Positions 4,978 through 54,381 are shown, counted from the first letter of the stretch. The stretch is DNA of 64,000 bases from Patescibacteria group bacterium (GCA_038062875.1 JBBTWF010000001.1:27769-91768); one strand, 5' to 3'. A program made the numbers and translations. Notes: a model not told the origin generated them from the letters alone.

Positions 4978-5391
4978 ATGTATATAAATTTATTGATACA
5001 ACTTAAAAATGCTCAAGCTGTTGGAAAGGATGCGATTAAGACAACTTATTCAAAAATGGATGAGCGCGTTCTCGATGTTTTAAAGAAAAATAATTTTATA
5101 GAGGCCTACGCGAAAAAGGGAAGAGGAATAAAAAAAGTCCTTGATATTAAATTAAAATATTTTTCCGCCAGAGGCGGATCCGCCTTCGGCGGAAACGGCA
5201 AAAAAAGCGCGATTCAAGATGTTAAATTTATCAGCAAGCCGTCTCGTCGAGTCCAAGTCGGTTATCGTGAATTAAGGCCGGTGAAACACGGTTATGGATT
5301 ATTGGTGGTATCAACGTCTCAAGGCGTTATGGCTGGCAAGGAAGCGAGAAAATTGAAAGTCGGAGGCGAGGCGTTGTTTGAAATTTGGTAA
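4978..5391 (+). CDS. rpsH: 30S ribosomal protein S8 carrying an in-frame palindromic insertion (SARGGSAFGGNGKKS)
   Basis: S8 N- and C-terminal blocks are present; the inserted segment at 5164-5193 is a GC-rich palindrome that recurs in other genes. Confidence 0.9.
   Translation: MYINLLIQLKNAQAVGKDAIKTTYSKMDERVLDVLKKNNFIEAYAKKGRGIKKVLDIKLKYFSARGGSAFGGNGKKSAIQDVKFISKPSRRVQVGYRELRPVKHGYGLLVVSTSQGVMAGKEARKLKVGGEALFEIW
5164..5193. repeat. GC-rich palindromic in-frame mini-insertion TCCGCCAGAGGCGGATCCGCCTTCGGCGGA (family copy 1 of 4)
   Basis: Near-identical 30-mers occur at 6724-6753 (rpsE), 19459-19490 (ligA) and 53886-53915 (murB); each encodes about SA(R/E)GGSA(F/K)GG. Confidence 0.85.
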
Positions 5392-5402
5392 AAATTATTT
5401 TT

Positions 5403-5948
5403 ATGTCTAAAATAGGAAAAAAACCAATAACAATTCCAGAAGGGATAGAAGTCAAAATTAATGACGCTAATTTTGAATTGAAAGGAAAAAATGGAGAGAT
5501 GTCTGTTAATATTTTGCCTTATGTTAAAATAGACATTAAAGATAATCAGATTATCTTTGACATTAAAAATAATTCTAAACAAGCGCGGACTAATTGGGGG
5601 ACAATGCGGTCATTGGTTCAGAACGCCGTTTTGGGATTATGCGAAGGATTTACTAAAATTTTAGAAATTAACGGAGTTGGTTTTCGCGCGGAAATACAAG
5701 GTAGCGATTTAGTTCTTAATGTCGGTTTGAGCCATCCTATAAAATTAAGCCCGCCTAAAGGTATTAAAATTTCCGCTGAAAAAAACATCATTAAAGTTTT
5801 TGGAGTTGATAAAATCGCCGTAGGAGAAACAGCGGCCAAAATCAGGGCTTTTAAGAAGCCGGAACCGTATAAAGGTAAGGGAATTAAATACCAAGGAGAG
5901 ATTATACAAAGAAAAGAAGGCAAGAAGGTCGCGGGAACCACTAAGTAA
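5403..5948 (+). CDS. rplF: 50S ribosomal protein L6
   Basis: MSKIGKKPITIPEGIEVKI, an L6 start; the ATG at 5403 is preferred to the upstream in-frame TTG that overlaps rpsH. Confidence 0.9.
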   Translation: MSKIGKKPITIPEGIEVKINDANFELKGKNGEMSVNILPYVKIDIKDNQIIFDIKNNSKQARTNWGTMRSLVQNAVLGLCEGFTKILEINGVGFRAEIQGSDLVLNVGLSHPIKLSPPKGIKISAEKNIIKVFGVDKIAVGETAAKIRAFKKPEPYKGKGIKYQGEIIQRKEGKKVAGTTK

Positions 5949-5956
5949 ATTGAATT

Positions 5957-6280
5957 ATGACCAAGAGAAAAACATTAAATCAAATAAGATCTCGCAGAAA
6001 AAAGAGGACGCGAGCTAAAATAAACGGCACTTCTGACAAGCCGCGCCTTTCGATTTTTCGAAGCAATCGGAGCATCCAAGTCCAATTGATTGACGACAAA
6101 GTTGGGAAAACATTAATAGCCGCTTCGACAAAAGAAGCTAAGAATTTAGGAGAATTAATTGGCAAGAAGGCGTCTGAAAAAGGGATTAAAAAAGCGGTTT
6201 TTGACAGGGGCGGATATAAATATCACGGTCGAATAAAAAAAGTCGTTGAAGAAGCGCGAAAAGCCGGATTACAAATATGA
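5957..6280 (+). CDS. rplR: 50S ribosomal protein L18
   Basis: 107 aa, KPRLSIFRSNRSIQVQLIDD...FDRGGYKYHGRIKKVVEEARKAGL, L18 motifs. Confidence 0.9.
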   Translation: MTKRKTLNQIRSRRKKRTRAKINGTSDKPRLSIFRSNRSIQVQLIDDKVGKTLIAASTKEAKNLGELIGKKASEKGIKKAVFDRGGYKYHGRIKKVVEEARKAGLQI

Positions 6281-6762
6281 GAGAATTTAAACAACCAACC
6301 GAATTTAAAGACAAGGTTTTAGATTTGCGTCGTGTAACGCGAGTTGTCGCTGGCGGCAAGCGTTTTCGTTTTAGAGCAACCGTGATAATCGGCAATGAGA
6401 AGGGGAAAGTCGGAGTAGGCGTTGCCAAAGGATTAGACGTGGCTCAATCGGTTGATAAAGCCAAAACAGATGCAAAGAAAAAAATAATCGTAATAGATCT
6501 TAAAAATAGAACTATTCCTCATGAAGTTGGGGCGAAATACAGCGCGGCTAAAGTAATAATTAAACCGGCTAAAGTCGGTCATGGTTTAAAGGCCGGCGGA
6601 GCAGTAAGGGCGGTTTTACTTTTGGCCGGTGTTAGAGACGCGACGGCAAAATGTTTGGGCGGAACAAAAAACAAATTAACTAATGCTTTGGCGACGATAG
6701 AAGCGTTAAAAAAACTAAAAACTTCCGCCGAAGGCGGATCCGCCAAAGGCGGAAAAAACTAA
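6277..6762 (+). CDS. rpsE: 30S ribosomal protein S5 with an in-frame palindromic insertion near the C-terminus (TSAEGGSAKGGKN)
   Basis: S5 dsRBD and C-domain are present; the 6724-6753 insertion belongs to the GC-rich palindrome family. Confidence 0.9.
   Translation: MREFKQPTEFKDKVLDLRRVTRVVAGGKRFRFRATVIIGNEKGKVGVGVAKGLDVAQSVDKAKTDAKKKIIVIDLKNRTIPHEVGAKYSAAKVIIKPAKVGHGLKAGGAVRAVLLLAGVRDATAKCLGGTKNKLTNALATIEALKKLKTSAEGGSAKGGKN
6724..6753. repeat. GC-rich palindromic in-frame mini-insertion TCCGCCGAAGGCGGATCCGCCAAAGGCGGA (family copy 2)
   Basis: Direct sequence comparison with the copy at 5164-5193. Confidence 0.85.
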
Positions 6763-6775
6763 AAACCATAAAACA

Positions 6776-7200: not shown

Positions 7201-8469
7201 ATGTCCAAAATCCTCCAAATCTTCAAAATCAAAGACCTTCGCAATAAAATTTTAATTGTCGCTTTTTTGTTGCTGTGTTTTAGGGCTTTATCGGTTGTTC
7301 CTATACCGGGAATTGACGTTTCTCGACTGCAGGAATTTTTTTCTTCAAATCAGCTTTTCGGTTTTCTTAATATTTTTTCCGGAGGCGCTTTAGGAAATTT
7401 ATCGATTGTGATGTTGGGAGTCGCTCCTTACATCACAGCTACCATTATAATGCAGCTTTTGACGATGATTTTTCCGAAATTTAAGGAAATGTATTACGAG
7501 GAAGGAGCGGCCGGTCGGGCGAAATTCAATCGTTATTCCCGTTATTTAACGGTTCCTTTGGCCGGACTTCAGGCGTACGGGTTTTTGAATTTATTAATAT
7601 CTCAAAATGTAATTCCTCATTTGGGGATTTTTGACACTTTAAGAAATGTTGTGATTATTTCCGCCGGTTCAATGATTTTGGTATGGCTTGGAGAATTAAT
7701 TAGCGAGCAGAAAATCGGCAACGGAATTTCGCTTATAATTTTTGCCGGTATTGTAAGCGCCTTACCGACAACAATAAGGCAAGCGTTTTTATCTTATGAG
7801 CCTTCAATTTTGCCGACTTACATTACTTTCGCGATAGTGGCGGTTTTTGTAATTGCCGGCGTGATTTTCATTAATGAGGGAGAAAGGAAAATACCCGTTG
7901 CTTACGCTAAACGTGTAAGAGGAATGAAAATGTACGGAGGCGTTTCCAGTTATCTTCCATTAAAAGTCAATCAGGCCGGCGTTATTCCGATTATTTTCGC
8001 CATTTCGATTTTGCTTTTTCCACAGTTTGCCGCGCAAATCAGCGCTGTGATTTCGCAGGATTTCGCTTTAAAATTCAACGAATTAGTCAACAGTGTTTTT
8101 AATAATCAATATTTTTATACCGTTATTTATTTCGTGTTGGTGATGGTTTTTACTTATTTTTACACGGCAGTCACTTTTGACCCGAAAGAGATTTCCAAGA
8201 ATCTCCAGCGGGCAGGCGGATTTATCGCCGGTATTCGGCCGGGTGAATCAACTTCGGTATTTTTATCGAAAATCATCAGTCGGATAACTTTATTCGGCGC
8301 CATCTTTTTGGGGCTCGTGGCTATTTTGCCTAACCTAACTAGAATGGTTACCGGAATCGCCGTGCTTACTATCGGCGGAACCGCGCTTTTAATTGTGGTT
8401 TCGGTTGCTTTAGAATCAATGAAGCAAATAAATTCTCAGTTGATAATGCGTGAATACGAAGAAATATAA
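7201..8469 (+). CDS. secY: Preprotein translocase subunit SecY
   Basis: 422 aa, 10 predicted TM segments, SecY signatures; canonical position after rplO. Confidence 0.95.
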   Translation: MSKILQIFKIKDLRNKILIVAFLLLCFRALSVVPIPGIDVSRLQEFFSSNQLFGFLNIFSGGALGNLSIVMLGVAPYITATIIMQLLTMIFPKFKEMYYEEGAAGRAKFNRYSRYLTVPLAGLQAYGFLNLLISQNVIPHLGIFDTLRNVVIISAGSMILVWLGELISEQKIGNGISLIIFAGIVSALPTTIRQAFLSYEPSILPTYITFAIVAVFVIAGVIFINEGERKIPVAYAKRVRGMKMYGGVSSYLPLKVNQAGVIPIIFAISILLFPQFAAQISAVISQDFALKFNELVNSVFNNQYFYTVIYFVLVMVFTYFYTAVTFDPKEISKNLQRAGGFIAGIRPGESTSVFLSKIISRITLFGAIFLGLVAILPNLTRMVTGIAVLTIGGTALLIVVSVALESMKQINSQLIMREYEEI

Positions 8470-8548
8470 ATTAAGAATATAGAATTTAGAATATAGAATT
8501 TAGGGGCTTAAAATCCTAAATCCTAAATCCTAAATCTTAAATCCTACA
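8470..8548. repeat. Intergenic opposed-heptamer hairpin element (aagaatatagaatttagaatatagaatttagggg ... (tcctaaa)n)
   Basis: Same family as the elements at 3367 and 4707; lies between secY and adk. Confidence 0.8.
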
Positions 8549-9232
8549 TTGATTGCAATTATCTTTTACGGTCCTCCTGGTTCAGGGAAGGGAACTCAAG
8601 CCAGATTAATAGCCGATAAACTCGGTTTAATTCATTTTGATACCGGAAAATATATAGAAAGCGTTGTTCATAATCCAGCAAATAAAAAAAATAAGGAAAT
8701 TCAAAAACAACGGAAAATGTTTGATTCTGGTCTCTTGTGTGAACCCGCTTGGGTGTTGAAAATCATAAAGGAAAGAGTCGAGCAATTGGCCTTAATTGGT
8801 TCGGGCGTTGTTTTCAGCGGTTCGCCTCGCACTTTATTCGAGGCATTTGGAGACAAAAAAAATATCGGTTTAATAAAAATTTTAGAAAAATATTATGGTA
8901 AGAAAAATATTTTTATTTTTAATATTGACATTGCTAAAAAAGAGTCAATAAAAAGAAACAGTAGTCGTTTGATGTGTTCGGTTTGCGGGACTCAACTTCT
9001 CGCCACTTTCAAGAAAATAGCAGAACTTAAAATATGTCCGTTTTGCGGTTCTAAATTGTATCGTCGCACTTTAGATAAATCGGAAATTATCAAAATTCGC
9101 CTAAAAGAATATCAAGAAAGAACTTTACCTATCCCAAAAGAATTAAAAAAACAAGGATATCGGGTTATTCGTATCAACGGCGAACCATTACCAGGGAAAG
9201 TAACGCAATCGATTCTGAAATGGTTATTATAA
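8549..9232 (+). CDS. adk: Adenylate kinase (TTG start) with a Cys4 zinc lid
   Basis: P-loop IIFYGPPGSGKGTQA, lid CSVCG...CPFCGSKLYRR; position after secY. Confidence 0.85.
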   Translation: MIAIIFYGPPGSGKGTQARLIADKLGLIHFDTGKYIESVVHNPANKKNKEIQKQRKMFDSGLLCEPAWVLKIIKERVEQLALIGSGVVFSGSPRTLFEAFGDKKNIGLIKILEKYYGKKNIFIFNIDIAKKESIKRNSSRLMCSVCGTQLLATFKKIAELKICPFCGSKLYRRTLDKSEIIKIRLKEYQERTLPIPKELKKQGYRVIRINGEPLPGKVTQSILKWLL

Positions 9233-12526: not shown

Positions 12527-13783
12527 ATGTTAGACATCAATTTAATCCGTAGCAATCCAGAATTAGTCAAAAAAGGCGTTTCCGCCAAAAATATAAACCC
12601 TCAATTAGTGGACGAGTTTTTGGTCTTAGACAAAGAATGGAGGGAATTGACCGCCAAATTGGATAATTTGCGGGCAGAGCAGAATAAACTAAGCAGTGAA
12701 AGAAAAATTGACGAGGCAAAAGAAAATAAAATAAAAATTAAAGGGATAGAAGATAAATTAAATGAAACAGAAAAACGGCGCGAGGAAATTTTAATGAGTT
12801 TGCCGAATTTGCCGTTTGATGATGTGCCAGTTGGCAAAGACGAAAGTGGTAATGTAGTAATTCGCGAGGTTAATAAAAAACCCGATTTTGATTTTCAGCC
12901 AAAAAACTATTTAGAACTCGCCGAGAAGCTGGGCTTGATTGATATAGAGCGAGCATCTAAAGTTTCCGGCAGTCGGTTCGGTTATCTAAAAAATCAAGCC
13001 GCGCTTTTTGAATTCGCTTTGATAAAATTGGCGATGGATACGGCGGTTGCCGAAGGATTTACGCCGATTGTTCCGCCGGTAATGGTCAAAAGCAAAATGA
13101 TGAAAGCAATGGGATATATTGACCGCCGTGAAGATCAAGACGAAACATATTTTTTAAAAGAAGACGATTTATATTTAGTCGGGACATCCGAACAGTCAAT
13201 CGGCCCGATGCATAGCGATGAAATTTTTAACGAAAAAGAATTACCAAAAAGATATGTCGGATTTTCAACGTGCTTTCGGCGAGAAGCCGGTTCTTACGGA
13301 AAAGATACAAAAGGTATTTTAAGAGTTCATCAATTTGATAAAATCGAGATGTTTAGTTTTTGTGAGCCGGAAAAATCAAAAGAAGAGCACGGGTTGTTAT
13401 TGGGAATAGAAGAAAAATTAATGCAGGCGCTTGGATTGCCATATCGGGTTTTAAGTATTTGTACGGGCGATTTAGGGGGACCGGCAGCGGCAAAATACGA
13501 CATTGAAGTTTGGTTGCCGGGTGAAAATCGCTACCGCGAAACCCATTCCACTTCCAATTGCACCGACTTTCAGGCGCGCCGGTTGAATATAAAATATAAA
13601 CCTAAAACCCAAAACCTAAAACCTAAAACCGATTATGTTCATACTTTGAACGGCACCGCTTTCGCTATCGGCAGAACACTCATCGCTATTATTGAAAACT
13701 TTCAGCAAAAAGACGGCACAATTTTAGTGCCGGAAGTTTTACAAAAATATTTGGGATTTGAGAAAATTGGGCTGTCCAGTTGA
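12527..13783 (+). CDS. serS: Seryl-tRNA synthetase carrying an in-frame heptamer-repeat insertion (KPKTQNLKPKT)
   Basis: N-terminal coiled coil plus class II core (FRREAGSYGKDTKGILRVHQFDKIEMF); the insertion at 13601-13630 is (CCTAAAAC)-type repeats. Confidence 0.9.
   Translation: MLDINLIRSNPELVKKGVSAKNINPQLVDEFLVLDKEWRELTAKLDNLRAEQNKLSSERKIDEAKENKIKIKGIEDKLNETEKRREEILMSLPNLPFDDVPVGKDESGNVVIREVNKKPDFDFQPKNYLELAEKLGLIDIERASKVSGSRFGYLKNQAALFEFALIKLAMDTAVAEGFTPIVPPVMVKSKMMKAMGYIDRREDQDETYFLKEDDLYLVGTSEQSIGPMHSDEIFNEKELPKRYVGFSTCFRREAGSYGKDTKGILRVHQFDKIEMFSFCEPEKSKEEHGLLLGIEEKLMQALGLPYRVLSICTGDLGGPAAAKYDIEVWLPGENRYRETHSTSNCTDFQARRLNIKYKPKTQNLKPKTDYVHTLNGTAFAIGRTLIAIIENFQQKDGTILVPEVLQKYLGFEKIGLSS
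13601..13630. repeat. In-frame tandem repeat cctaaaacccaaaacctaaaacctaaaacc inside serS
   Basis: Same 7-8-mer repeat unit as the intergenic elements; it encodes a KPKTQNLKPKT loop. Confidence 0.85.
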
Positions 13784-14432: not shown

Positions 14433-15242
14433 ATGATAAAAGACGGCATATATTTTGACGAAAAATTGGAGCGGAGGAGAAAGCGGATGTTAAAAATCAA
14501 AATTTACGGCGGGTTAACGATTTTTTTTCTTTTAATAATAGGCGCCGGGTATTTAGTTGTTTATTCTTCGGTTTTTCAAATAACGCGGATTGATGTTGAT
14601 ATTAACGCGGATTTACGCGGGTTTGAAACGCAAATAATTGAGGACTTAAAAATTCTCTTTACCAATCAGTCAAAAATATCTTCATTTCTTGGACCGGATA
14701 ATATTTTAATTTGGGAAAGCGGAGACGATATTGAGCAATTCAAAAAAAATAATCCATTAATTGCCTATTTGGTTATTAGTAAAGATTACATTGAGCGTAA
14801 AATTAAAATAGAAGTAAAAGGGAGGGAGAAATACGGCGTTTGGTGTAAATCAGCAATCAACTATTGTTGGTGGTTTGATAAAAGCGGTATTATTTTCGCC
14901 GAAGCGCCAATGGTTGAAGGCGCTTTGATAAATAAAGTGAATGATTCCACGGGTCGCGATTTAAAAATCGGCGACACGATTATTGAACAGAGATTTTTGG
15001 ATAATTTATTGAAAATTTTCGCGGTTTTGGAAGAAACGAATTTAGGAAAAGGTTTTTTGAATTTGGAAAATTTGAGTTTGCAAGAAATTATTTTTAATTC
15101 TCCTCTTGGCTTTAAAATATATTTTAGCTTAAGATTTGACCCGCGATTCAGCTTAGCCGGCATTAAGTCCATCAAAGAAATCGGTTTGGAAAAGATGGAT
15201 TATATTGATTTTAGAGTGGAGAATAGGGTTTATTATAAATGA
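14433..15242 (+). CDS. Cell-division FtsQ/DivIB-like protein (single TM plus POTRA-like domain)
   Basis: N-terminal basic segment, one TM helix, then a beta-rich extracytoplasmic domain; weak family-level call. Confidence 0.4.
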   Translation: MIKDGIYFDEKLERRRKRMLKIKIYGGLTIFFLLIIGAGYLVVYSSVFQITRIDVDINADLRGFETQIIEDLKILFTNQSKISSFLGPDNILIWESGDDIEQFKKNNPLIAYLVISKDYIERKIKIEVKGREKYGVWCKSAINYCWWFDKSGIIFAEAPMVEGALINKVNDSTGRDLKIGDTIIEQRFLDNLLKIFAVLEETNLGKGFLNLENLSLQEIIFNSPLGFKIYFSLRFDPRFSLAGIKSIKEIGLEKMDYIDFRVENRVYYK

Positions 15243-17137
15243 TAAATAAATATAGACGTTCCAGCTTTTGCGTCCGGTTTATACGGGTCTTTCAGCGCTT
15301 TCAGCCATCGATATTCGTCTTCGGGATTTCGTAATTGTCCTTGATGAAGTTTACCTATGGCGCCTTGTAAATTATTAATAGAAATCGCTATCCAGTTGAT
15401 TCCTTCTTCTTTAGGGTTGCCTTTTGACGATTGCCAATATTCAACCTTATTTTCTCCTAAGTAATACTTTGAATTTCCGCCGCCGAAATAATCGATCGCG
15501 ATTTTGTCGTTATTAGAAAGATTTTTTTCAACGAATATTTTCAGTCGTTTCAAGTCCTGTCCCCAGTCATAATTTGAATCAACTACATATTTATAGCCGC
15601 TCTCAACTCCGCCGCCGAATTGATTAAAGTAAGAAAGATAATGAGGAGTTGCAAATAAAACTTCCGTTAAGTACCAGATTATTAAAACAGCGATAACAAC
15701 ACCTTTAAAAGAAGTTTTTATAAGATTAAAGATGGTTTTGGCGATTCGTTTCCATAATCTTTCATCATTAATCATTTTTCTGATTGTCCATTTTTTTAGG
15801 GCGCTGGCGGTCAGAATATAAATAAAAGGCATAGTAGGCAGAATATGGCGAATGCCGATATTTAACGGGCTTTTAATGCTGTAGAGCCAGTAGAAAATCA
15901 CAAAAGAAATCATTGAAAATTCGGCGAAATGGGTGCCAATGTAGTCGCTGAAAGTTTTTAGTTTATAGGTTTTAGGTTTTAGGTTTTTAATAATACTCCA
16001 AAGACCCAACAAAAATGCTAATCCGATTAAAATCATTGAAGGAATCGGTTCTTTTAAAATAAAAACCATCGGGAAATAATACCACCAGCCACTGGCCGAG
16101 ACCTCACCCAAGAAATAAGCGGTGTTGCCTCCGGACGAACGTTGCATAACCATTAAAACGCCGAGCATATATTCGGCTAACGGCCGAGTAAGTCGGTTTT
16201 CAGACATAATAATATTAATATCAGCTAAACATCGCAGTTTGTTGTGATTCAAGTCGCATATTTTATTGCTTGGAGCCGGACCGTCGGCAAAAGAAGTTAG
16301 GATTGTTTTAGTGTCGGAAACCTGTTTTTCAACTGGATAGTTAAAAGTGAATAGAAAATAAACCGCGTAGACCAAAGCGTAACCGATTATAAAAATAGAA
16401 ATTAATTGACCTGCGCATTTAAGAAAGTGGAGCAAAATTTTTCTCCATTCAAGATTGATTTTCCAAATTAAGAAAATGATTATTAGAAAAATAAAGAACG
16501 GGATTAAAAGAACGGCGGAAAATTTTATCAATTGGGCGATACCGAAAGCCAAACCAGCCCAAATTAGATGTTTTCGCGACGGAGAAAAAAGAAATTTAAC
16601 GAAATAATAAATAGCCAGAAATATTCCCAAAGCCGCGCCGATATCTGTGGTCACATAATGGCCGTGCGCTAAAACAGCGGGGGAAAATGAAAAGAGAAAA
16701 GTCGGCAATAATGCCCACCAGCGGCCGATTAATTCCCGCGCCCAGATATAAATAAAAATAACCAAGAGCAGAGTTAAAAGCATTGGGCCAAGTCGCGCCC
16801 AACCAACTATTTTATCAGCGTCATTTCCGGATTCATAAAGGAATTGGGCGCCGGCTACCCATTGGCCGTTAACATCGGTTCGCCAAGACGATTTATCAGT
16901 TGGGAAATTTAGGTTTTGAAATAATAAGGGTAAAGCGGACAGGGCTTTAACTAAGGGCGGATGTTCGGGATTAAGTCGATAATCAAGATAGCGGGCATAG
17001 CCGTAGCCAGATGGAATATGCGCCAATTCATCCATAGTGGCTGATTCTTTAAGAGAGGCGTTGAGCATCAAACCAAAACAGGACAGAACCATCAGCGCTA
17101 CCAAGCCCCATTGAATCCAGGAAAGTGTCTTAGTCAT
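15233..17137 (-). CDS. Polyprenol-phosphate-dependent glycosyltransferase of the GT39/GT83 (PMT/ArnT) family, multi-pass membrane, with an in-frame repeat insertion
   Basis: N-terminal DELAH...YxxxP motif (MDELAHIPSGYGYARYLDYRLNPEHPPLVKAL), more than 10 TM segments; 15965-15988 on the minus strand is the heptamer repeat (NLKPKTYKLKT). Confidence 0.7.
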   Translation of the reverse strand: MTKTLSWIQWGLVALMVLSCFGLMLNASLKESATMDELAHIPSGYGYARYLDYRLNPEHPPLVKALSALPLLFQNLNFPTDKSSWRTDVNGQWVAGAQFLYESGNDADKIVGWARLGPMLLTLLLVIFIYIWARELIGRWWALLPTFLFSFSPAVLAHGHYVTTDIGAALGIFLAIYYFVKFLFSPSRKHLIWAGLAFGIAQLIKFSAVLLIPFFIFLIIIFLIWKINLEWRKILLHFLKCAGQLISIFIIGYALVYAVYFLFTFNYPVEKQVSDTKTILTSFADGPAPSNKICDLNHNKLRCLADINIIMSENRLTRPLAEYMLGVLMVMQRSSGGNTAYFLGEVSASGWWYYFPMVFILKEPIPSMILIGLAFLLGLWSIIKNLKPKTYKLKTFSDYIGTHFAEFSMISFVIFYWLYSIKSPLNIGIRHILPTMPFIYILTASALKKWTIRKMINDERLWKRIAKTIFNLIKTSFKGVVIAVLIIWYLTEVLFATPHYLSYFNQFGGGVESGYKYVVDSNYDWGQDLKRLKIFVEKNLSNNDKIAIDYFGGGNSKYYLGENKVEYWQSSKGNPKEEGINWIAISINNLQGAIGKLHQGQLRNPEDEYRWLKALKDPYKPDAKAGTSIFIYHL

Positions 17138-19733: not shown

Positions 19734-20033
19734 ATGGAAAAACTTAGTAAAAAAACTTTAGAATATTTGGCTGGATTAGCGAGGATTGAATTAGATAAAA
19801 AGGGCGAGGATAAGTTATTAAGGGATTTACAAAAAATCTTCGATTATTTTGAGGAACTTAAAGAAGTTAATACGGAGAATGTTGAATCGATGACTGGCGG
19901 TAATATTTTTTCGGAAAATGTTTTTCGCGAAGATATTCAAAACTTAAAGCTAAAAGCTAAAAACTCAAAGCTAATTGAGGTGTTCCCGGAAGAAAAAGAC
20001 GGATTTTTGAAAGTGCCGCCTGTTTTTGAATAA
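19734..20033 (+). CDS. gatC: Asp/Glu-tRNA amidotransferase subunit C, with a repeat-derived LKLKAKNSKL segment
   Basis: 99 aa; LAGLARIELDKKGEDKLLRDLQKIFDYFEEL is a GatC signature; tandem repeat at 19940-19975. Confidence 0.8.
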   Translation: MEKLSKKTLEYLAGLARIELDKKGEDKLLRDLQKIFDYFEELKEVNTENVESMTGGNIFSENVFREDIQNLKLKAKNSKLIEVFPEEKDGFLKVPPVFE

Positions 20034-20142: not shown

Positions 20143-20162
20143 GGTGCAGTTGACTGCACCAC
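20143..20162. repeat. Palindrome TGGTGCAGTTGACTGCACCA, the upstream flank of the Cys-rich gene
   Basis: An identical 18-bp core (GGTGCAGTTGACTGCACC) recurs at 22015-22032 just after the same gene. Confidence 0.85.
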
Positions 20163-22013: not shown

Positions 22014-22033
22014 CGGTGCAGTTGACTGCACCA
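22014..22033. repeat. Palindrome CGGTGCAGTTGACTGCACCAG, the downstream flank of the Cys-rich gene
   Basis: Same 18-bp core as the palindrome at 20143. Confidence 0.85.
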
Positions 22034-34502: not shown

Positions 34503-34568
34503 AATTTAGAATATAGAATTTAGGGAACGAAAATCCTAAATCCTAAATCCTAAATCCTAAATCCTAAA
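34503..34568. repeat. Intergenic opposed-heptamer hairpin element (tagaatttagaatatagaatttaggg ... (tcctaaa)x5)
   Basis: Same family as 3367 and 4707; between murA and mreB-1. Confidence 0.8.
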
Positions 34569-40318: not shown

Positions 40319-41551
40319 ATGCGTCAATCAACTCTTTTTACTAAAACTCGTAGAGAAGCGCCGAAAGACGAAGAAGCAGTCAACGCCAAACTGCTTATTC
40401 GAGCTGGTTTTGTTGATAAACTAATGGCAGGGGTCTATACTTTTTTGCCTTTGGGTTTTCGAGTGCTTAAAAAAATTGAGAATATTGTAAGAGAGGAAAT
40501 TAACAAAGCGGACGGAGTGGAAATTCTGATGCCAACGCTTCAGCCAAAAGAAAATTGGCAGAAAACTGGACGCTGGGACACGATGGACGATTTATACAAA
40601 GTTAAAGATAAAAGCGAAAAAGAATTCGCTTTGGGTCCTACGCACGAAGAAGTTATTTTTCCTTTATTAAAAAAATATATTTTTTCTTACAAAGACCTGC
40701 CGCTTTATATTTATCAAATACAGAATAAATTCAGAATGGAATTAAGAGCGAAATCCGGACTTTTGCGCGGAAGAGAATTTTTAATGAAAGACCTTTATTC
40801 GTTTCATACCAATGAAGAAGACAGAGATAAGTATTACGATAAAATCATAGAGGTCTATAAAACAATTTTTGACAAAGTCGGCATAGGCGAAAAAACATAT
40901 TTTACGCTCGCGCCGGGAGGGACTTTTTCCAGACATTCCCATGAATTTCAGACGATTACGGAAGCCGGCGAAGACATAATCCATATCTGCGAGGCCTGTA
41001 AGATTGCAATTAATGACGAAATAATAAAAGAACAAAAATCTTGTCCGAAATGCGGAAAAAATAAATTTCAAAAAGAAAAATCCGTTGAGACGGGGAATAT
41101 TTTTAAATTAAAAGATAAATTCGCGGAGGATTTTGATTTAAAATTCAGAGACAAAGACGGATCGGAAAAATTTGTTTCAACTGGATGCTACGGGTTAGGA
41201 TTCGGACGTTTGATTGGAGTTGTCGTAGAAGTAAATCATGATGATAAAGGAATAATCTGGCCGGAATCAATCGCGCCGTTTCAAGTTCATTTGTTAGATA
41301 TAAGAGGAAAGGGGCAAGAGGAAAGAGGAAAGAAAATTTACGAAACTTTACAGAAAAATGGAGTTGAAGTATTGTATGATGACAGAAATGATGCCAGCGC
41401 GGGCGAAAAATTCGCTGACGCGGATTTAATCGGTATTCCGTACAGAGCCGTAATCAGCGAAAAAACCGGGGATAAAATTGAAATAAAAAAGAGGAGCGGT
41501 AAAGAAATTAAATTAGTTAGCGAGAAAGAGTTAATTAAATCTCTGATATGA
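40319..41551 (+). CDS. proS: Prolyl-tRNA synthetase, short form without the editing insertion, with an inserted Cys4 zinc ribbon
   Basis: Class II motifs (FRMELRAKSGLLRGREFLMKD, GCYGLGFGRLIGVV); C-terminal anticodon-binding domain; ribbon CEACK...CPKCGKN. Confidence 0.85.
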   Translation: MRQSTLFTKTRREAPKDEEAVNAKLLIRAGFVDKLMAGVYTFLPLGFRVLKKIENIVREEINKADGVEILMPTLQPKENWQKTGRWDTMDDLYKVKDKSEKEFALGPTHEEVIFPLLKKYIFSYKDLPLYIYQIQNKFRMELRAKSGLLRGREFLMKDLYSFHTNEEDRDKYYDKIIEVYKTIFDKVGIGEKTYFTLAPGGTFSRHSHEFQTITEAGEDIIHICEACKIAINDEIIKEQKSCPKCGKNKFQKEKSVETGNIFKLKDKFAEDFDLKFRDKDGSEKFVSTGCYGLGFGRLIGVVVEVNHDDKGIIWPESIAPFQVHLLDIRGKGQEERGKKIYETLQKNGVEVLYDDRNDASAGEKFADADLIGIPYRAVISEKTGDKIEIKKRSGKEIKLVSEKELIKSLI

Positions 41552-43753: not shown

Positions 43754-45657
43754 GAAAAAAACCTGAATTTTTATTAGAAGAAGCCGTGCTTGACGATTTA
43801 GCGCAAGATTTCGATGTTATGGAATTGCCGCTTTCCAAGCGCGCTTTTAAGTTACTAGGTTTATCCGTTATCATAGTCATAGTCATCGTCATAGTCAGAG
43901 TTTTATATTTAGGAATTTGGCAGGGAAATTTTTACAAAACTATAGCTCAGATTAACGCCAATCAAATCATTGTTTTGCGAGCCGAACGAGGAATAATTTT
44001 TGATCGATTTAATAAGCCAATGGTTGAAAACTTGCCGAGTTTTCAATTAGATTTAATTCTCGCTGAATTGTTAAAAAATCCGCAAGAACGCGAGCAAACG
44101 CTGGAAGCCATTGCCAAAACCGTCGGTTTGTCTCCGTCTTATGTGGAGAATCTTATTAAAGATATTGATTTGGAAAAACAAAATTCTTTAATCTTAGCCA
44201 AAAATCTTACAATTGAACAGGTTATTCAATTAAAAAGTTTAAATTTTAAAGCCCTCAGAATCGAAGAAAATTTTGAGCGCCAATATTCCGATTCAAAAAC
44301 CAACGCGCATATTCTTGGTTATACCGGAATTGCCAATAAAGAAGATTTATCGGGAAATTCCGAATTTTTACTTAACGATATCGTCGGAAAATCCGGCTTG
44401 GAAAGTTATTATGACAAAGAATTGCGCGGTCAAGACGGCCAAAGAGCGAATTTTCGCAATGCCAAAGGAGAAATTATTGATGAAAAACTTTTGACCGAGC
44501 CGGTGGCCGGAGACAATCTTTATTTAACTATTGACAGTGAGTTTCAGTCCTATTTTTACCAGCGTTTAAAACAAGGGTTAAATAGTTTGGGACGTCAGTC
44601 CGGCGTTGGAATCGCCATTAATCTCCAAAACGGAGAGGTCTTAGCGCTGGTTAGTCTGCCAAGTTTTGACGCCAATCAAAATTTAAGCGATTTTTTTTCT
44701 GACCCTAATAAACCGTTTTTTAATCGAGCCATCAGCGGGGCTTACGCTCCAGGCTCAACCATTAAACCGCTAGTTGCTTTGGCGGCTTTAAAAGAAAATA
44801 TCATCACTCCGACTCAAGAAATTTTTTCCCGCGGCTATTTGGAAATTCCCAATCCTTATCATCCGGAACAACCGAGTCGTTTTCTTGATTGGAAACCGAA
44901 TGGTTGGGTGAATTTATATTCGGCTTTAGCGCGTTCTTGCAATATTTATTTTTACGCGCTTGGCGGCGGTTTGCCGTCTTCGGTCAGCGGTATAATGCGA
45001 GGCGGCTCTGATAATATAAAAGGATTAGGCATAGAGAAATTAAAAGAATATTGGGGAAAATTCGGTTTAGGAGAAACAACGGGCATTGATTTGCCCGGAG
45101 AAAATAATGGATTTTTACCCGACCCGAAAGAAAAAGAACAGCGAACCGGCGAGCCGTGGCGACTGGGCGACACTTATAACGTAAGCATCGGTCAAGGCGA
45201 CCTTTTAATCACTCCAATTCAGTTGATTAATTACATCGCGGCTATTGCTAATGGCGGAAAGATTTTCCAGCCGTTTATCGTAAAAAAAATTATTTCTGAA
45301 GATGGACATGTAATTAAAGAAAGACAGCCGAAAATTCTCAAAGATTATTCTGAATTTGATAATTATATTAAAGAAGTCCAAAAAGGAATGGTTGATGTTG
45401 TGGAAAAATCCTACGGCACCGCTTATCTTTTAAATGATTTACCGGTAATGGTAGCGGCGAAGACAGGCACGGCTCAGATTGAAGGCAATGAGAAAATAAA
45501 CGCTTTTTTCGTCGGTTACGCGCCTACTGACAATCCTCAATTAGTAGTTTTAGTCCTTGTTGAAAACGCCCGAGAAGGCAGTTTAAACGCCGTGCCAATA
45601 GCCAAAGACGTATTTAATTGGTATTATTACAATAGACTAAAGATAGGTGTTAGGTGA
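43750..45657 (+). CDS. mrdA: Penicillin-binding protein 2 (peptidoglycan D,D-transpeptidase)
   Basis: SxxK (STIKP), SxN (SCN) and KTG (KTGTAQ) transpeptidase motifs; N-terminal TM and dimerisation domain. Confidence 0.85.
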   Translation: MRKKPEFLLEEAVLDDLAQDFDVMELPLSKRAFKLLGLSVIIVIVIVIVRVLYLGIWQGNFYKTIAQINANQIIVLRAERGIIFDRFNKPMVENLPSFQLDLILAELLKNPQEREQTLEAIAKTVGLSPSYVENLIKDIDLEKQNSLILAKNLTIEQVIQLKSLNFKALRIEENFERQYSDSKTNAHILGYTGIANKEDLSGNSEFLLNDIVGKSGLESYYDKELRGQDGQRANFRNAKGEIIDEKLLTEPVAGDNLYLTIDSEFQSYFYQRLKQGLNSLGRQSGVGIAINLQNGEVLALVSLPSFDANQNLSDFFSDPNKPFFNRAISGAYAPGSTIKPLVALAALKENIITPTQEIFSRGYLEIPNPYHPEQPSRFLDWKPNGWVNLYSALARSCNIYFYALGGGLPSSVSGIMRGGSDNIKGLGIEKLKEYWGKFGLGETTGIDLPGENNGFLPDPKEKEQRTGEPWRLGDTYNVSIGQGDLLITPIQLINYIAAIANGGKIFQPFIVKKIISEDGHVIKERQPKILKDYSEFDNYIKEVQKGMVDVVEKSYGTAYLLNDLPVMVAAKTGTAQIEGNEKINAFFVGYAPTDNPQLVVLVLVENAREGSLNAVPIAKDVFNWYYYNRLKIGVR

Positions 45658-45725
45658 TAGGTTTTAGGTGTTAGATATTTTTAAGTTTTTTATCCTAAAA
45701 CCCAAAACCTAAAACCCAAAACCTA
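45640..45725. repeat. Opposed 8-mer repeat hairpin element (GGTGTTAGGTGATAGGTTTTAGGTGTTAG ... CCTAAAACCCAAAACCTAAAACCCAAAACCTAA) overlapping the 3' end of mrdA
   Basis: A variant of the heptamer family; the left arm encodes the last residues of PBP2. Confidence 0.75.
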
Positions 45726-46760
45726 ATGAATAGCGAACTACGACAAGACCTTGTTTCCGGCGACTGGATTGTTCTTTCTCCTCAAAGAGCAAAACGTCCG
45801 GCTGATTTAATTAAAAAATCGGAAAAAAGAAAAAAAGCGCCGCTCAAAGGGTGTCCCTTTGAAGACCCGCAGAAATCCGGTAACGGCGAACCCATATTAA
45901 TATATCCAACTAAAAGCCAAAAACTAAAAACTAAAAACTTGTTCGAATGGTGGGTTCAGATTATTCAAAATAAATATCCGGTTTTTGTATCAGGGTTAGA
46001 TTCGAAAGATGGTATTCATATTTGCGCCAGCGTATTTCAGAAGGGTCCTTATTTAGTTATAGACGGCAGAGGTTATCATGATTTAGTAATTACTAAAAAT
46101 CATCACAAAAATTTTGCTCATCTTCCTGAACAACAAGCAGAGGCGGTTTTAAAGATTTTTCAAAACCGTTATAAAATGTTTTTAAATGATTCATGTTTGG
46201 CTTATACTTCGATTTTTCACAATTGGGGACCGAAATCCGGGGCTTCAATTTATCACCCTCATTACCAGATAATCGCTTTGCCGGTGATTCCGCCGGATGT
46301 CCAGCATTCGCTTAATGGTTCATCTGATTATTTTAAAAAATATCGTAAATGCGTTCATTGCGTGATGATTGAATGGGAAAAGAAAAACCGTTCGCGAGTT
46401 GTTTTTGAAAATAAAGGCGCCATCGCTTTCACGCCTTTTGTTTCGCGAGAGCCGTTTGAAGTGAGAATTTTCCCCAAATCTCATTCTCCTTTTTTTGAGG
46501 ATGCTCCTAAAAAAGAATTAAGCGACGTTGTCGAGGCGTTACAAAATATTCTTTTGAAAATAGAAAAGAAATTAAATGACCCGGATTATAATTTTTTTAT
46601 TCATACGGCGCCGATTCGCGACAAACAAAAATATGGTCATTATCATTGGCACATTGAAATTTTGCCGAAAATAAGCACTTCTGCCGGATTTGAACTTGGA
46701 ACTGGAATTGAGATTACGGTCGTTGACCCGGACGAAGCGGCTAAAATTCTTAAATTGTAA
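45726..46760 (+). CDS. galT: Galactose-1-phosphate uridylyltransferase-like HIT-superfamily nucleotidyltransferase with an in-frame repeat insertion
   Basis: HxHxQ-type motif IYHPHYQII and a second half-barrel (HYHWHIEILPK); repeat (AAAAACT)n at 45912-45940 (KSQKLKTKNL). Confidence 0.65.
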   Translation: MNSELRQDLVSGDWIVLSPQRAKRPADLIKKSEKRKKAPLKGCPFEDPQKSGNGEPILIYPTKSQKLKTKNLFEWWVQIIQNKYPVFVSGLDSKDGIHICASVFQKGPYLVIDGRGYHDLVITKNHHKNFAHLPEQQAEAVLKIFQNRYKMFLNDSCLAYTSIFHNWGPKSGASIYHPHYQIIALPVIPPDVQHSLNGSSDYFKKYRKCVHCVMIEWEKKNRSRVVFENKGAIAFTPFVSREPFEVRIFPKSHSPFFEDAPKKELSDVVEALQNILLKIEKKLNDPDYNFFIHTAPIRDKQKYGHYHWHIEILPKISTSAGFELGTGIEITVVDPDEAAKILKL

Positions 46761-50049: not shown

Positions 50050-50856
50050 ATGAAGAAGCTCATAGTTTTTAACTGGAAAATGGCGCCCGACTCGTTAAAA
50101 AAAGCGAAGCAACTTTTTAATTTAGCCCTAAATTCTTCCGCCAAAGGCGGGAAATCTCATATTCTAAATTCTGAAATTGTTGTCTGCCCGCCGTTTATTT
50201 ATTTATCAGAACTCGTTGGTCTTATTAATAAGACCAAAATTAAATTAGGAGCGCAAAACGTTTTTTGGGAAAACCCATTGGTTGGTGGAGGCGTTTATAC
50301 CGGTGAAATCTCGCCAAAAATGCTGAAAAATTTAGGAGTGGAATACGCGATTATTGGCCATTCCGAACGCCGGAAATATTTAAACGAAACCGATGAAATA
50401 ATTAATAAAAAGGTTTTAGCGGCACTAAAAGCGGGGTTGAAAGTGATTTTATGTATTGGCGAGGATTTATCAATTCGCAAACGTGGCAAAAAAGCAGTTG
50501 AAAAATTTATTAAAAACCAATTAGGAAAAGACTTAAAAAATTTATCCCTAAATTCTATCCGCCAGCTGGCGGACTCTATTCTAAATTCTCGTCTTATTAT
50601 TGCTTACGAACCCATCTGGTCCATCGGCACCGGCCATTCTGATACTCCGCAGGACGCCTTGGAAATAATAAAATTCATTAAAGAAACCCTCAATTCTCAA
50701 TTCTCAATTCTCAATTCTAAAATATTATACGGCGGCTCTGTCGATTCCAAAAACATCGTTAAATTTTTAAAACATCCCGAAATCGACGGCGCGCTCATCG
50801 GCCACGCGAGCTTGAAAACGGGGGAAATCAGGAAAATTTTTAAAGAACTTTATTAA
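50050..50856 (+). CDS. tpiA: Triosephosphate isomerase with several in-frame repeat insertions
   Basis: FNWKM start motif, IIGHSERR, YEPIWSIGTG, YGGSV. Insertions: the palindrome at 50217-50238 and ctaaattct-type repeats at about 50540-50590 and 50690-50725. Confidence 0.85.
   Translation: MKKLIVFNWKMAPDSLKKAKQLFNLALNSSAKGGKSHILNSEIVVCPPFIYLSELVGLINKTKIKLGAQNVFWENPLVGGGVYTGEISPKMLKNLGVEYAIIGHSERRKYLNETDEIINKKVLAALKAGLKVILCIGEDLSIRKRGKKAVEKFIKNQLGKDLKNLSLNSIRQLADSILNSRLIIAYEPIWSIGTGHSDTPQDALEIIKFIKETLNSQFSILNSKILYGGSVDSKNIVKFLKHPEIDGALIGHASLKTGEIRKIFKELY
50217..50238. repeat. 22-bp perfect palindrome TTGGTCTTATTAATAAGACCAA in frame in tpiA (LVGLINKTKI)
   Basis: An identical 22-mer occurs at 60657-60678 in pgk. 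Confidence 0.9.
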
Positions 50857-52474: not shown

Positions 52475-52507
52475 AATGAATTTGTTAATTAAGCATAGAA
52501 AATAAAA

Positions 52508-53149
52508 ATGAATAAAAAAGATTATATACTTGGAATTTCATCCGGACTACTTATAGGGGTTTTGGCTTTACCTGTAATAAGGGCTATAAAGCCGGAGATA
52601 TACGGAAAATTCGCATTTTTAGTTATACCATTTTTTTTAATCGGCACGCCTCTTGGACTGATAGTTGCTAATTATATCGGCAGAAAAATTTCAATAATAT
52701 GGCAGATTGGGAAATTCGGCGTAATCGGTGTCTTGAATACATTGGTTGACTGGGGAGTTCTGGCGATATTAATTTTTTCTTTCAGGAAATATTTGAATAT
52801 AGATTCAAAAGATTTACTGATAGCTGGAATCGCGTTCTACTCTTTATACAAAGCAATTTCGTTTATAATCGCGAATATAAATAGTTATTACTGGAATAAA
52901 TACTGGACATTCGCAACCGGTGTTGCCAAAAAAACAAAGGCGGAGTTTCTGCAATTTTTTATGGTTAGTATTTTAGGTTTTTCCATTAATGTCGGTATTG
53001 CTTCTTATGTATTTAAATATATTCATCCTATTGGCGGGCTTAATTTTGACCAATGGGGCATTATCGGAGCGGCAGTAGGAAGCGTGGTTGGCTTGGCTTG
53101 GAATTTTATCGGCTATAAATTTATTGTTTTCCACAGCCCAAGGTCTTGA
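52508..53149 (+). CDS. GtrA-family membrane protein (polysaccharide synthesis or flippase accessory)
   Basis: KFGVIGVLNTLVDWGVL, a GtrA signature. Confidence 0.7.
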   Translation: MNKKDYILGISSGLLIGVLALPVIRAIKPEIYGKFAFLVIPFFLIGTPLGLIVANYIGRKISIIWQIGKFGVIGVLNTLVDWGVLAILIFSFRKYLNIDSKDLLIAGIAFYSLYKAISFIIANINSYYWNKYWTFATGVAKKTKAEFLQFFMVSILGFSINVGIASYVFKYIHPIGGLNFDQWGIIGAAVGSVVGLAWNFIGYKFIVFHSPRS

Positions 53150-53184
53150 CATTTATAAGTGAATTATATTATAATAGCAATAAT

Positions 53185-53385
53185 AGATGAGTATCAGTAA
53201 TCCTTAACGATGATATCGATTGAGGATTGCCCACAATTTGTTTGGCCGAGCACATAATATTTATGTGCTCGGTTTTGTTTTTACTGGATTTTTTGTATAC
53301 TTAAATTGGAGCCGCGGGACGAGCACTCATCTATTACAAACAGAATTGGAGGTCACCGCTCGCGGCTCCACGAGTTTGTATTTTC
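53185..53385. ncRNA. Candidate structured RNA or leader upstream of murB: long-range pairing AATAGATGAGTAT/GCACTCATCTATT enclosing two hairpins
   Basis: Inner hairpins CCGAGCACATAATATTTATGTGCTCGG+T-run and GGAGCCGCG...CGCGGCTCC; the GC-rich ORF 53220-53420 in the track is probably spurious. Confidence 0.35.
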
Positions 53386-53391
53386 CCGATT

Positions 53392-54381
53392 ATGTTTCAA
53401 AAAAGAGTTTTACTCAGTAAATACAGTAATTTTAAAATCGGGGGACCGGCGAAATATTTTTTTGAAGCAAAAAATGTAGAAGAAATTATAAAAGCGGTTA
53501 AATTAGCGAAGCGTTTAAAAACGCCTTTTTTTATTTTAGGCGGCGGAACCAATATTTTATTTAGCGATAAAGGATTCAACGGGTTGGTTTTAAAACCTAA
53601 TATTAAATTTATTAAAAGAAATGGAAATTTTTTGCGAGTCGGCGTTGGAGTCCAAATATCTCAATTGCTTAATTATTCAATAAATAATAATTTAACTGGC
53701 TTAGAGTGGTCGGCCGGTATTCCCGGAACGATTGGTGGAGCGGTTAGGGGCAATGCCGGCGCGTTCGGCGGAGAAATGAAAGATATAATCACGGAGGTTT
53801 CGAGTTTGGATATTTCAGAAGCGCGTTTTAAAATTATAAAAAGAAAAAAATCAGATTGTTGTTTTGGTTATCGTTCGAGTATATTCTCCGCCGAAGGCGG
53901 ATCCGTCTCTGGCGGAAAAAATTCAAAAACGAAGGAGATTATTACGGAAGTTGTTTTGCGATTAAAAAAAGGCGAAAAGAGTAAAATAAAAGAAATTATA
54001 AATAGAAACATCAGTTACCGTCGGAAAAATCACCCTCTGGGATATCCCAGCGCCGGAAGTGTTTTTAAAAATGTGGATATCGTTGATTTTCACGAATATG
54101 AGCGCGAATATCGTAAATATTTAAATAAAAGATTCGTAAAAATTAGCGGAAAATTCGCACCGATTAACGATGGTAAGATTCCAGCCGCTTATTTAATTGC
54201 AGAAGCCGATTTAAAGGGAATTTCTCGCGGCGGAGCGATGATTTCGTCTAAACATCCGAATTTTATTGTTAATATTTCTAATGCTACGGCAAAAGATGTA
54301 AAAAATTTGATTAAATTAGCAAAGAAAGAAGTAAAAAATAAATTTAAAGTAGATTTAGAAGAGGAAATAGTTTTTGTTTGA
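53392..54381 (+). CDS. murB: UDP-N-acetylenolpyruvoylglucosamine reductase with an in-frame GC-palindrome insertion
   Basis: FAD-binding FKIGGPAKYFFE...GGGTNILF, catalytic Ser region; the insertion at 53886-53915 encodes SAEGGSVSGGKN. Confidence 0.8.
   Translation: MFQKRVLLSKYSNFKIGGPAKYFFEAKNVEEIIKAVKLAKRLKTPFFILGGGTNILFSDKGFNGLVLKPNIKFIKRNGNFLRVGVGVQISQLLNYSINNNLTGLEWSAGIPGTIGGAVRGNAGAFGGEMKDIITEVSSLDISEARFKIIKRKKSDCCFGYRSSIFSAEGGSVSGGKNSKTKEIITEVVLRLKKGEKSKIKEIINRNISYRRKNHPLGYPSAGSVFKNVDIVDFHEYEREYRKYLNKRFVKISGKFAPINDGKIPAAYLIAEADLKGISRGGAMISSKHPNFIVNISNATAKDVKNLIKLAKKEVKNKFKVDLEEEIVFV
53886..53915. repeat. GC-rich palindromic in-frame mini-insertion CTCCGCCGAAGGCGGATCCGTCTCTGGCGGA (family copy 4, slightly degenerate)
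   Basis: Compared directly with the copies at 5164, 6724 and 19459. Confidence 0.8.

Follow-up and report, generated by a model that had tools for sequence, protein, structure and literature searches.

A 30-nt palindromic repeat carried in frame by conserved genes of a Patescibacteria population and shared between bacterial phyla

Four conserved genes in the genome sequence of a Patescibacteria group bacterium, rpsH, rpsE, ligA and murB, each contain the same 30-nt GC-rich palindrome in frame. The sequence analysed, referred to here as the window, is a stretch of 64,000 nt (GCA_038062875.1, JBBTWF010000001.1:27769-91768) from a Hainich groundwater population, filtered at 0.1-0.2 um, whose nearest named relatives are Wolfebacteria/Paceibacteria. 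LigA and MurB are 100% identical to proteins of an NCBI MAG labelled 'Patescibacteria group bacterium', with contigs of 93-105 kb, and assemblies made independently from this population agree at every base over 28 kb. The element has the form TCCGCC-NNN-GGCGGA twice in direct succession, and the four sequences are probably copies of a small, non-autonomous palindromic repeat similar to repetitive extragenic palindromes (REP) and to the Rickettsia palindromic elements (RPE).

The window was searched for the pattern TCCGCCNNNGGCGGATCCGCCNNNGGCGGA with 3 or fewer mismatches, using 100 dinucleotide-preserving shuffles as the control. Exactly four sites were identified, and none in the 100 shuffles:

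5164-5193, plus strand: 30-nt element, AGA/TTC triplets, 0 mismatches, in rpsH (ribosomal protein S8, 4978-5391)
6724-6753, plus strand: 30-nt element, GAA/AAA triplets, 0 mismatches, in rpsE (ribosomal protein S5, 6277-6762)
19459-19488, plus strand: 30-nt element, AGA/TTC triplets, 0 mismatches, in ligA (17611-19701)
53887-53916, plus strand: 30-nt element, GAA/TCT triplets, 1 mismatch, in murB (53392-54381)

The search and the translations agree with the original prediction of in-frame copies in these four genes. Its coordinates are exact for S8 and S5, while the ligA copy ends at 19488 rather than 19490 and the murB copy had been placed at 53886-53915. The element is 73% G+C and the window 37.3%, not the 33% that had been proposed. 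Ten residues are added after Lys-Tyr-Phe in S8 (KYF-SARGGSAFGG-NGKK), in the C-terminal tail of S5 two codons ahead of the rpsE stop (KKLKT-SAEGGSAKGG-KN), in the LigA linker that joins the HhH and BRCT domains (KLKT-SARGGSAFGG-KTFVLTG) and in MurB (SSIF-SAEGGSVSGG-KNSK), where there is a single stem change of GCC to GTC. Compared with the S8 and LigA variant (AGA/TTC), murB carries the reverse complement (GAA/TCT), so that the AGA/TTC variant accounts for three of the four copies and the element is present in both orientations. Being a palindrome, it encodes the same type of peptide from either.

It is clear that the element is an insertion in S8 and MurB. The empty S8 site of a relative, L130, reads TAT TTT/GAT GAT AAA, where the slash marks the junction, and the window reads TAT TTT, the 30 nt, then AAC GGC AAA. 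For MurB, the empty site of the 63%-identical homolog in relative L259 is AGT ATT TTC/AAA AAG, and the window has AGT ATA TTC, the 30 nt, then AAA AAT. Both filled alleles exceed the empty ones by exactly 10 codons (30 nt), with clean junctions and no duplication of the target. The empty S8 allele of the source population is predicted to be AAATTAAAATATTTT/AACGGCAAAAAAAGC, and a peptide such as YFSARGGSAFGGNGK would cover the translated insert. Of the best 120 S8 homologs, 118 are without the insert, at 126-127 aa; only the window protein and one that is 97% identical to it are 137 aa. At the MurB site 115 of 120 homologs lack the segment, as do 115 of 119 LigA homologs, and the S5 of L130 ends in ALKKLKSEV with the element absent. 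The extra segment is therefore not an ancient feature of these proteins, and the proposal that it had been inserted into the canonical sequences is borne out.

The inserts are in loops, linkers and termini, in line with the surface loops or termini that had been predicted. The MurB insert is in a loop and is a gap against Listeria MurB 3tx1. Alignments with solved structures have gaps at the sites in MurB and in triosephosphate isomerase (TIM; see below), and the S5 tail insert is beyond the folded domain, past the end of the PDB alignment. The S8 insertion loop is where Thermus S8 carries an extension of its own, and residues 65-74 of an AlphaFold model of the window S8 are coil without secondary structure, with a predicted local distance difference test (pLDDT) score below 50. 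The LigA insert is in the interdomain linker.

The element occurs across phyla. In a collection with one genome per species (596 Gb; the genome set), the exact pattern is found in at least 120 stretches, where about 0.004 chance matches are expected, and about 70 of 144 sites in a metagenome scan described below add to these, so the family goes well beyond four copies. By record label, a source that may be unreliable in some cases, roughly 70 of the 120 listed loci are from Patescibacteria of many classes, with the others from Omnitrophota, Kiritimatiellae/Verrucomicrobiota/Lentisphaerae/Planctomycetes, Ignavibacteria (including contigs of 1.6 Mb), Chloroflexota, Desulfotomaculaceae and others. 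Chance and assembly artefact were rejected as explanations, given the absence of matches in the shuffles and the identical copies in independent ENA, NCBI, Logan and JGI assemblies, Mb-size contigs included. Carriage by phages or plasmids was also rejected: the element is absent from 50,697 phage records, 72,556 plasmid records and 5,426 complete E. coli genomes, and there are 2 matches in 2.9 M viral contigs. One of these two, in IMG/VR contig UViG_3300037067_014859 (L122 217-2194), is inside a group II intron, between the reverse-transcriptase open reading frame (ORF) and domain V, 15 nt upstream of the latter, and forms the last codons of the reverse-transcriptase ORF (Pfam RVT_1; Rfam RF02005, RF00029). 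It is possible that group II introns are a vehicle for horizontal spread. Rfam finds nothing at the element, and a known RNA family was rejected on that basis. No description of it was found in the literature when searched by sequence, lineage and concept. To this extent the suggested novelty for the lineage stands, with the qualification that the element is common to several phyla; palindromes in frame are themselves less novel, as intragenic REP-type repeats have already been described elsewhere (PMC3733652).

Two further settings of the palindrome were noted in other genomes. In the 55% GC Kiritimatiellae metagenome-assembled genome (MAG) STD1_155 (L005 4560-4740 and 6380-6560; L002, L050), the palindrome opens a longer intergenic composite repeat that continues with a second hairpin element (...gtcattccgagcgtag...ggaatctc...). 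This second hairpin element yields the spurious 'HPERSEEPALSEVEGISRGEIP' ORFs that are present in many environmental genomes. In three Ignavibacteria MAGs (L029 6021, L042 390, L072 2838) the palindrome is at one position of a common protein motif, ...Y.VQF-SAxGGSAxGG-...SGVY, which bears some resemblance to a C-terminal type IX secretion sorting domain.

The sequence that is conserved is a nucleotide element rather than a peptide motif. Given S-A-x-G-G, the codon usage of the genome predicts TCC GCC nnn GGC GGA with P = 0.0038. A metagenome scan with the codon-degenerate pattern TCNGCNNNNGGNGGNTCNGCNNNNGGNGG identified 144 sites in two sharply distinct classes. In 71 there are 0-2 third-position deviations from the hairpin codons (46 are exact), and every one is on a contig of 30-65% GC. 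The second class, 73 sites with 3-8 deviations, consists of Gly/Ala-rich tandem repeats on contigs of 50-79% GC (71 of the 73 at 55% or more). In low/medium-GC DNA, SAxGGSAxGG is thus encoded by the hairpin codon set in 71 of 71 cases. This contradicts the suggestion that the decapeptide itself is selected, as a flexible linker, modification site or recognition tag, with the likeness of the DNA being secondary. Such selection would be in keeping with the strong bias to one reading frame and with the location of copies in linkers and loops, but about a third of the copies are outside long ORFs, some are in other frames or have in-frame stops, and one is in the RNA region of a group II intron; the suggestion is highly improbable. 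The third-position changes (19 of 26 C to T, 2 of 26 A to G) were tried as a test for selection at the RNA level and discarded as uninformative, because an AT-biased mutation spectrum yields the same pattern.

The original prediction described two back-to-back hairpins. When folded as RNA or DNA with ViennaRNA, every copy instead forms one long hairpin centred on GGATCC. It has an outer stem of TCCGCC/GGCGGA, extended by the flanking T and A, then a small internal mismatch at the positions earlier taken to be the loops, and an inner stem of GGCG/CGCC closed by a GAUC loop. As RNA, the copies fold at -19 to -24 kcal/mol (z-scores from -3.6 to -4.5). About 93% of 177 copies have A at position 9 and T at position 22, and the two are paired in 90%, so that A-GGCGGATCCGCC-T, a palindrome of 14 nt, is the conserved core. 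Watson-Crick pairing of positions 8 and 23 is seen in 21% of copies against 39% expected, with 1000 of 1000 shuffles paired at least as often, these positions being mostly G.T or A.C, which are one state viewed from either strand. This implies either avoidance of a perfect 30-nt palindrome or descent of most copies from a master of the AGA/TTC type.

Copies within genes have passed through filters of frame and orientation. In the genome set 64% of copies are within ORFs of at least 150 aa, and in the independent metagenome set 71%, both below the coding density of about 90%. Within these ORFs, frames 0, 1 and 2 are used 70:6:6 and 36:9:4 in the respective sets, so that 106 of the pooled 131 long-ORF copies are in the Ser-Ala-x-Gly-Gly frame. 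This is frame 0, SAxGGSAxGG; the remaining frames encode PPxADPPxAE and RQRRIRLRR. The variable triplets of coding copies contain no stop codons, and those of some non-coding copies do. Where the central mismatch is asymmetric, 42 of the frame-0 copies are oriented to encode Lys/Glu + Ser and 15 to encode Arg/Gly + Phe (p = 4.6e-4). The favoured orientation places A.C in the mRNA hairpin and the other one G.U, which points to tolerance at the level of the protein or of translation, not to selection for a strong mRNA structure. These filters also bear on the idea that the insert is not translated, with ribosomes hopping from one GGA codon to the next, thereby bypassing 15 nt, or across the element in its entirety. 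There are precedents in T4 gene 60 and in the GC-rich 'byp' inserts of AT-rich Magnusiomyces mitochondrial genes, and the element does have two in-frame GGA codons 15 nt apart flanking a stable predicted hairpin. However, efficient skipping would remove the need for frame and for stop-free triplets, and the coding copies are both frame-restricted and stop-free, which makes bypassing scarcely credible.

The flanks of the copies have the consensus T(-3) T(-2) Y(-1)/R(+1) A(+2) A(+3), with T(-2) in about 80% and A(+2) in 88-100%. Frame-0 coding copies are preceded by Phe in about 46% and followed by Lys in about 56%. Since the flanking TTT/TTC and AAA belong to the host in S8 and MurB, this consensus is a target or retention preference and is outside the insert. 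No target-site duplication of 2-6 nt was found beyond chance among 176 copies, nor in the two pairs of empty and filled alleles. An exact 7-nt direct repeat borders the insert in 4 of the 176, each in the context of a heptamer array.

Copies within one genome resemble each other. The variable triplets are shared by 14 of 30 pairs of copies from the same MAG, compared with 5.2% between MAGs (permutation p < 2e-4). The same sites have also been used repeatedly. Among the 119 LigA homologs, four have the element at the site used in the window and these are not monophyletic; the same linker position is filled in three non-sister lineages (P0001, P0005 and P0017/19), and the nearest LigA relatives of the window (P0002-4) are without it. 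In P0089 the element is 7 residues upstream and in P0116 it is at a different site. The MurB site is filled in four homologs of 53-55% identity and not in those of 63%. Loss through decay is under way in S8, where the copy of the 97%-identical strain has 3 changes in its 30 nt, two of which break pairs, compared with 11 in the remaining 384 nt. Elsewhere, ten degenerate copies were identified in 1 Mb of loci. In one MurB homolog (P0284) the palindrome is split at its centre by HLPDGQ (SARGA-HLPDGQ-GSAFGG), which suggests a nested insertion, judging by the sequence.

The similarity of copies within genomes and the polymorphism of sites support the selfish in-frame proliferation that had been proposed, as an inference rather than a demonstration. 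The proposed element would be 30 nt long, or effectively 34 nt with the preferred TT...AA flanks, and centred on GGATCC. It would be copied within genomes and moved between them, inserting at short junctions of a T-run and an A-run (TTY/RAA) without duplicating the target. With a length divisible by three and no stop codon in any frame, it would never truncate a protein on insertion. Selection would then clear most intragenic copies, and the survivors would be those in loops, linkers and termini, mostly in frame for two runs of the small, flexible residues Ser-Ala-x-Gly-Gly, and preferentially oriented for Lys/Glu + Ser over Arg/Gly + Phe. The copying step may, tentatively, be a single-strand, hairpin-recognising reaction of the HUH/tyrosine-transposase type (as in IS200/IS605 and RAYT) acting in trans, as this fits three features: the target is not duplicated, the substrate is a hairpin, and a short motif adjoins the point of insertion.

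Several observations weigh against such a mobile repeat. No transposase or other gene is enriched near the copies in 120 loci of 8 kb: all-against-all clustering of the 1,456 ORFs of these loci gave a largest cluster of 5 loci, and a linked transposase was therefore rejected. No insertion polymorphism was seen within one population, the independent assemblies being identical, and the copy count for this genome is that of the 64-kb window alone. An identical 24-nt core across phyla is unusual compared with REP families. The stems of the same-site LigA copies are 100% conserved, with differences in the variable triplet only (TTC, TTA and TTG), even though the neighbouring synonymous positions differ. 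Finally, several of the ten degenerate copies have compensatory changes in the stem.

The last three of these points are what would be expected of the main rival explanation, a signal with a function at the level of DNA or RNA, maintained through selection or molecular drive, of which the protein insert is a tolerated by-product. The signal could be a competence DNA-uptake sequence in these nucleotide-auxotrophic bacteria, a site bound by a conserved DNA- or RNA-binding protein, or an mRNA structure pacing translation at domain boundaries. The patchy same-site distribution could then reflect patch recombination following DNA uptake, and the intragenic copies of Haemophilus and Neisseria uptake sequences are frame-biased as well. 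On the other hand, the copy in the 97%-identical strain is decaying with its pairing disrupted, the favoured orientation gives A.C and not G.U in the mRNA hairpin, and the copies have no regular position relative to genes. An uptake specificity common to Patescibacteria, Omnitrophota, the Planctomycetes-Verrucomicrobia-Chlamydiae (PVC) group and Ignavibacteria is implausible, and uptake sequences originate by point mutation, whereas the insertions here are clean. A functional signal is therefore considered improbable, although it deserves more weight than the peptide and bypass explanations.

The original prediction had noted only the four full-length copies. Shorter members with the same stem are present in tpiA (TIM), in an ORF without a Pfam match and in the RNase P RNA gene:

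50137-50151, plus strand: single 15-nt unit TCCGCCAAAGGCGGg, adding SAKGG, in tpiA (50050-50856)
50558-50573, plus strand: 16-nt palindrome TCCGCCAGCTGGCGGA, same stem with a 4-nt centre, in tpiA
32380-32397, minus strand: 18-nt palindrome ATCCGCCAGCTGGCGGAT, in the minus-strand ORF 31816-33129 (no Pfam match)
62834-62849, minus strand: hairpin TCCGCC-AATC-GGCGGA, same stem, in the RNase P RNA gene (62804-63162)

The 15-nt unit in tpiA is flanked by AAATTCT heptamers and is a 5-aa gap in the alignment with Thermotoga TIM 1b9b. The 16-nt palindrome is read in a different frame (IRQLAD), with direct AAATTCT heptamers on both sides (about 50545-50590), at a gap of 9-13 aa against 1b9b and against L259. 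The 18-nt palindrome, a longer version of the 16-nt one, has directly repeated A-rich heptamers at its flanks. In a further relative, L128, this 16-nt core recurs in the PMT gene, again flanked by heptamers. The RNase P RNA gene matches Rfam RF00010 at 112.5 bits, and its hairpin (UCCGCC-GAUU-GGCGGA) is in a variable region near the 3' end; it is uncertain whether the hairpin belongs to the family, and whether it is native or inserted. The 16-nt palindrome is also found at position 3649 of L259, where it encodes the native, conserved PPAGGG of TIM and there is no insertion.

The heptamers belong to a wider set of repeats. About 35 period-7 tandem arrays are present in the window, many of them within genes (for example 13598-13630, 17934-17965, 18111-18143, 19946-19974, 22779-22816, 23035-23067, 41302-41333, 45908-45939 and 50689-50718), with units of AAACCTA, AACCCAA, AAAACTA, AAAGCTA, AAGAGGA, CTCAATT and others. 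Those in conserved genes encode low-complexity loops of the KPKTQN type, though 7 is not divisible by 3. The window was compared with the syntenic L128, whose LigA is 80% identical over conserved alignment columns (GatA 22044-23486, PMT 15233-17137, LigA at ~17930, SerRS 12527-13783, GatC 19734-20033), and with L259 (TIM and MurB). At the same loop positions in these seven proteins each genome has a repeat family of its own. The loops of the window contain AAAACCY heptamers (KPKTQN); those of L128 contain 'TNTDYTQTNTDSLHKSAF...' elements or AAATTCA heptamers around TCCGCCAGCTGGCGGA, and that genome also has palindromic elements of the 'TNTDYTQTNTDSLHKSAFSQRKSA' type and an insert of roughly 40 aa, 'LPLRKVSRRPSGHGSERSEESE...', in LigA. 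This suggests that the loops are hot spots of insertion and replacement, or that they undergo concerted evolution within genomes. The 30-nt palindrome is one among several occupants of these loops.

GC-hairpin cores are commonly found between direct heptamer repeats. Of 176 copies in the wider sample, 28 have a direct 7-mer common to both flanks where 9 are expected, and 5 adjoin period-7 arrays where 1 is expected. It could be argued from this that nothing is mobile, and that in-place slippage and intrastrand template switching perfect quasi-palindromes in loops already consisting of simple repeats, with gene conversion making them similar. The abundance of period-7 arrays in genes and the different, genome-specific repeats in the same loops of relatives are consistent with such a process, and the compensatory stem changes fit templating from arm to arm. 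However, independent origin cannot account for 24 fixed bases that are the same in over 100 unrelated genomes, the S8 and MurB sites are clean 30-nt additions outside any repeat context, and the sharing of variable triplets within genomes needs template copying. Local origin is accordingly very unlikely, and the copies are still better seen as those of a small repeat that has moved.

Other repeats in the window are of different kinds. The intergenic spacers at 3358-3438, 4693-4780, 8460-8554, 34494-34574, 35574-35677 and 45642-45730 contain long AT-rich palindromes that are inverted heptamer arrays, (AGAATAT/AGAATTT)n ... (AAATCCT)n, the arms of which have one A.C mismatch per heptamer on the plus strand and G.U on the minus strand. 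Short-read contigs of the source population break at these palindromes (L252 ends just past S17). Identical 18-nt palindromes, GGTGCAGTTGACTGCACC, at 20143-20160 and 22015-22032 flank an ORF at 20194-21972 of 592 aa without a Pfam match, in which 77 nt are duplicated internally (20818-20894 and 21286-21362). At 24836-25004 there is a period-36 tandem repeat of about 2.7 + 2.3 copies with the consensus ...GAGCGAGCCAGAGTAGTTGAGAAAACCAG..., and no long plus-strand ORF.

Short conserved multicopy motifs are familiar from the DNA uptake sequences (DUS) of Neisseria and the uptake signal sequences (USS) of the Pasteurellaceae, some of which occur as inverted pairs and whose intragenic copies are biased to tolerated frames and variable protein regions. 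These arise by point substitution within one bacterial family, whereas the element is a 30-nt insertion. Double-hairpin elements in mitochondria are comparable short GC-rich hairpin repeats. Mitochondrial GC clusters and repetitive hairpin-forming elements are, like the element, short GC-rich hairpins in AT-rich genomes and are occasionally situated within coding regions (PMC2800124). Those of fungi and sponges differ in belonging to organelle genomes and to another sequence family and in being mostly intergenic, so the likeness is one of analogy only. MITEs, the miniature transposable elements with inverted repeats, are small non-autonomous repeats able to create in-frame fusions (PMC10969869), but they measure 70-300 bp, have terminal inverted repeats and duplicate their target site, and the element is 30 nt and makes no duplication.

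The closest parallels are with the RPE and REP. The RPE are palindromic repeats found in frame in unrelated housekeeping genes, at positions compatible with the fold, and are regarded as selfish DNA (PMC10969869; PMC3733652). RPE-1 to RPE-10 share with the element the in-frame insertion into functional housekeeping ORFs, and the analogy drawn in the original prediction holds for this behaviour, in loops, linkers and termini of housekeeping proteins. They differ in being about 100-150 bp (about 30-50 aa) and confined to Rickettsia, compared with 30 nt, 10 aa and several phyla, and the short RPE end in CGTC, a tag that the element does not have. Several species have been reported to carry intragenic REP in genes for DNA ligase, tRNA synthetase and repair, commonly within linkers or loops (PMC3733652). 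REP and the REP doublets forming hairpins (REPIN) are, like the element, GC-rich palindromes of 20-40 nt in many copies with no target duplication. However, they carry a GTAG/CGTC tag, and neither was enriched among 180 flanks: CGTC and GACG occur at 7 and 4 against about 10 expected, and GTAG and CTAC at 2 and 6 against 4-5, so that membership of the GTAG/CGTC REP superfamilies was rejected. REP are imperfect palindromes, while the two-fold symmetry of the element is nearly perfect, and they are mainly extragenic, while about two thirds of the element copies are in ORFs of at least 150 aa. The REP-associated tyrosine transposase (RAYT) gene, which is IS200/IS605-like, is flanked by repeats; no RAYT-like neighbour was seen in the 120 8-kb loci of the element. 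REP families are normally species-specific and the core of the element is identical across phyla. The element therefore behaves like an RPE or REP but departs from the RPE in length and from both in tag and host range. It appears to be a small repeat not described before, which persists within genes only at places where the flexible loop that it encodes does no harm.

The identity of the core across phyla argues for frequent horizontal movement and a broadly available mobilising activity. In its strongest form, which is unlikely though worth stating, this would be a new, horizontally spreading micro-element with its own sequence-specific TTY/RAA insertion machinery, riding group II introns between phyla and, together with the heptamer arrays, continually rewriting loops on the surface of essential proteins, those of the ribosome among them, in uncultured bacteria both ultra-small and other.

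If the copies are those of a mobile repeat, it would be the smallest known bacterial repeat to colonise coding sequence, its 10 codons being about a fifth of an RPE. The surviving copies would represent a natural mutagenesis screen of permissive sites in S8, S5, LigA, MurB, TIM and many other proteins, and they display selection on frame and orientation. The element and the heptamer arrays break short-read assemblies, inflate the apparent divergence of proteins in the Patescibacteria and create spurious ORFs (PPxADPPxAE, RQRRIRLRR). The element also provides a sequence tag for phyletic profiling, which could lead to the enzyme responsible. A good part of its significance is in the breadth of its distribution.

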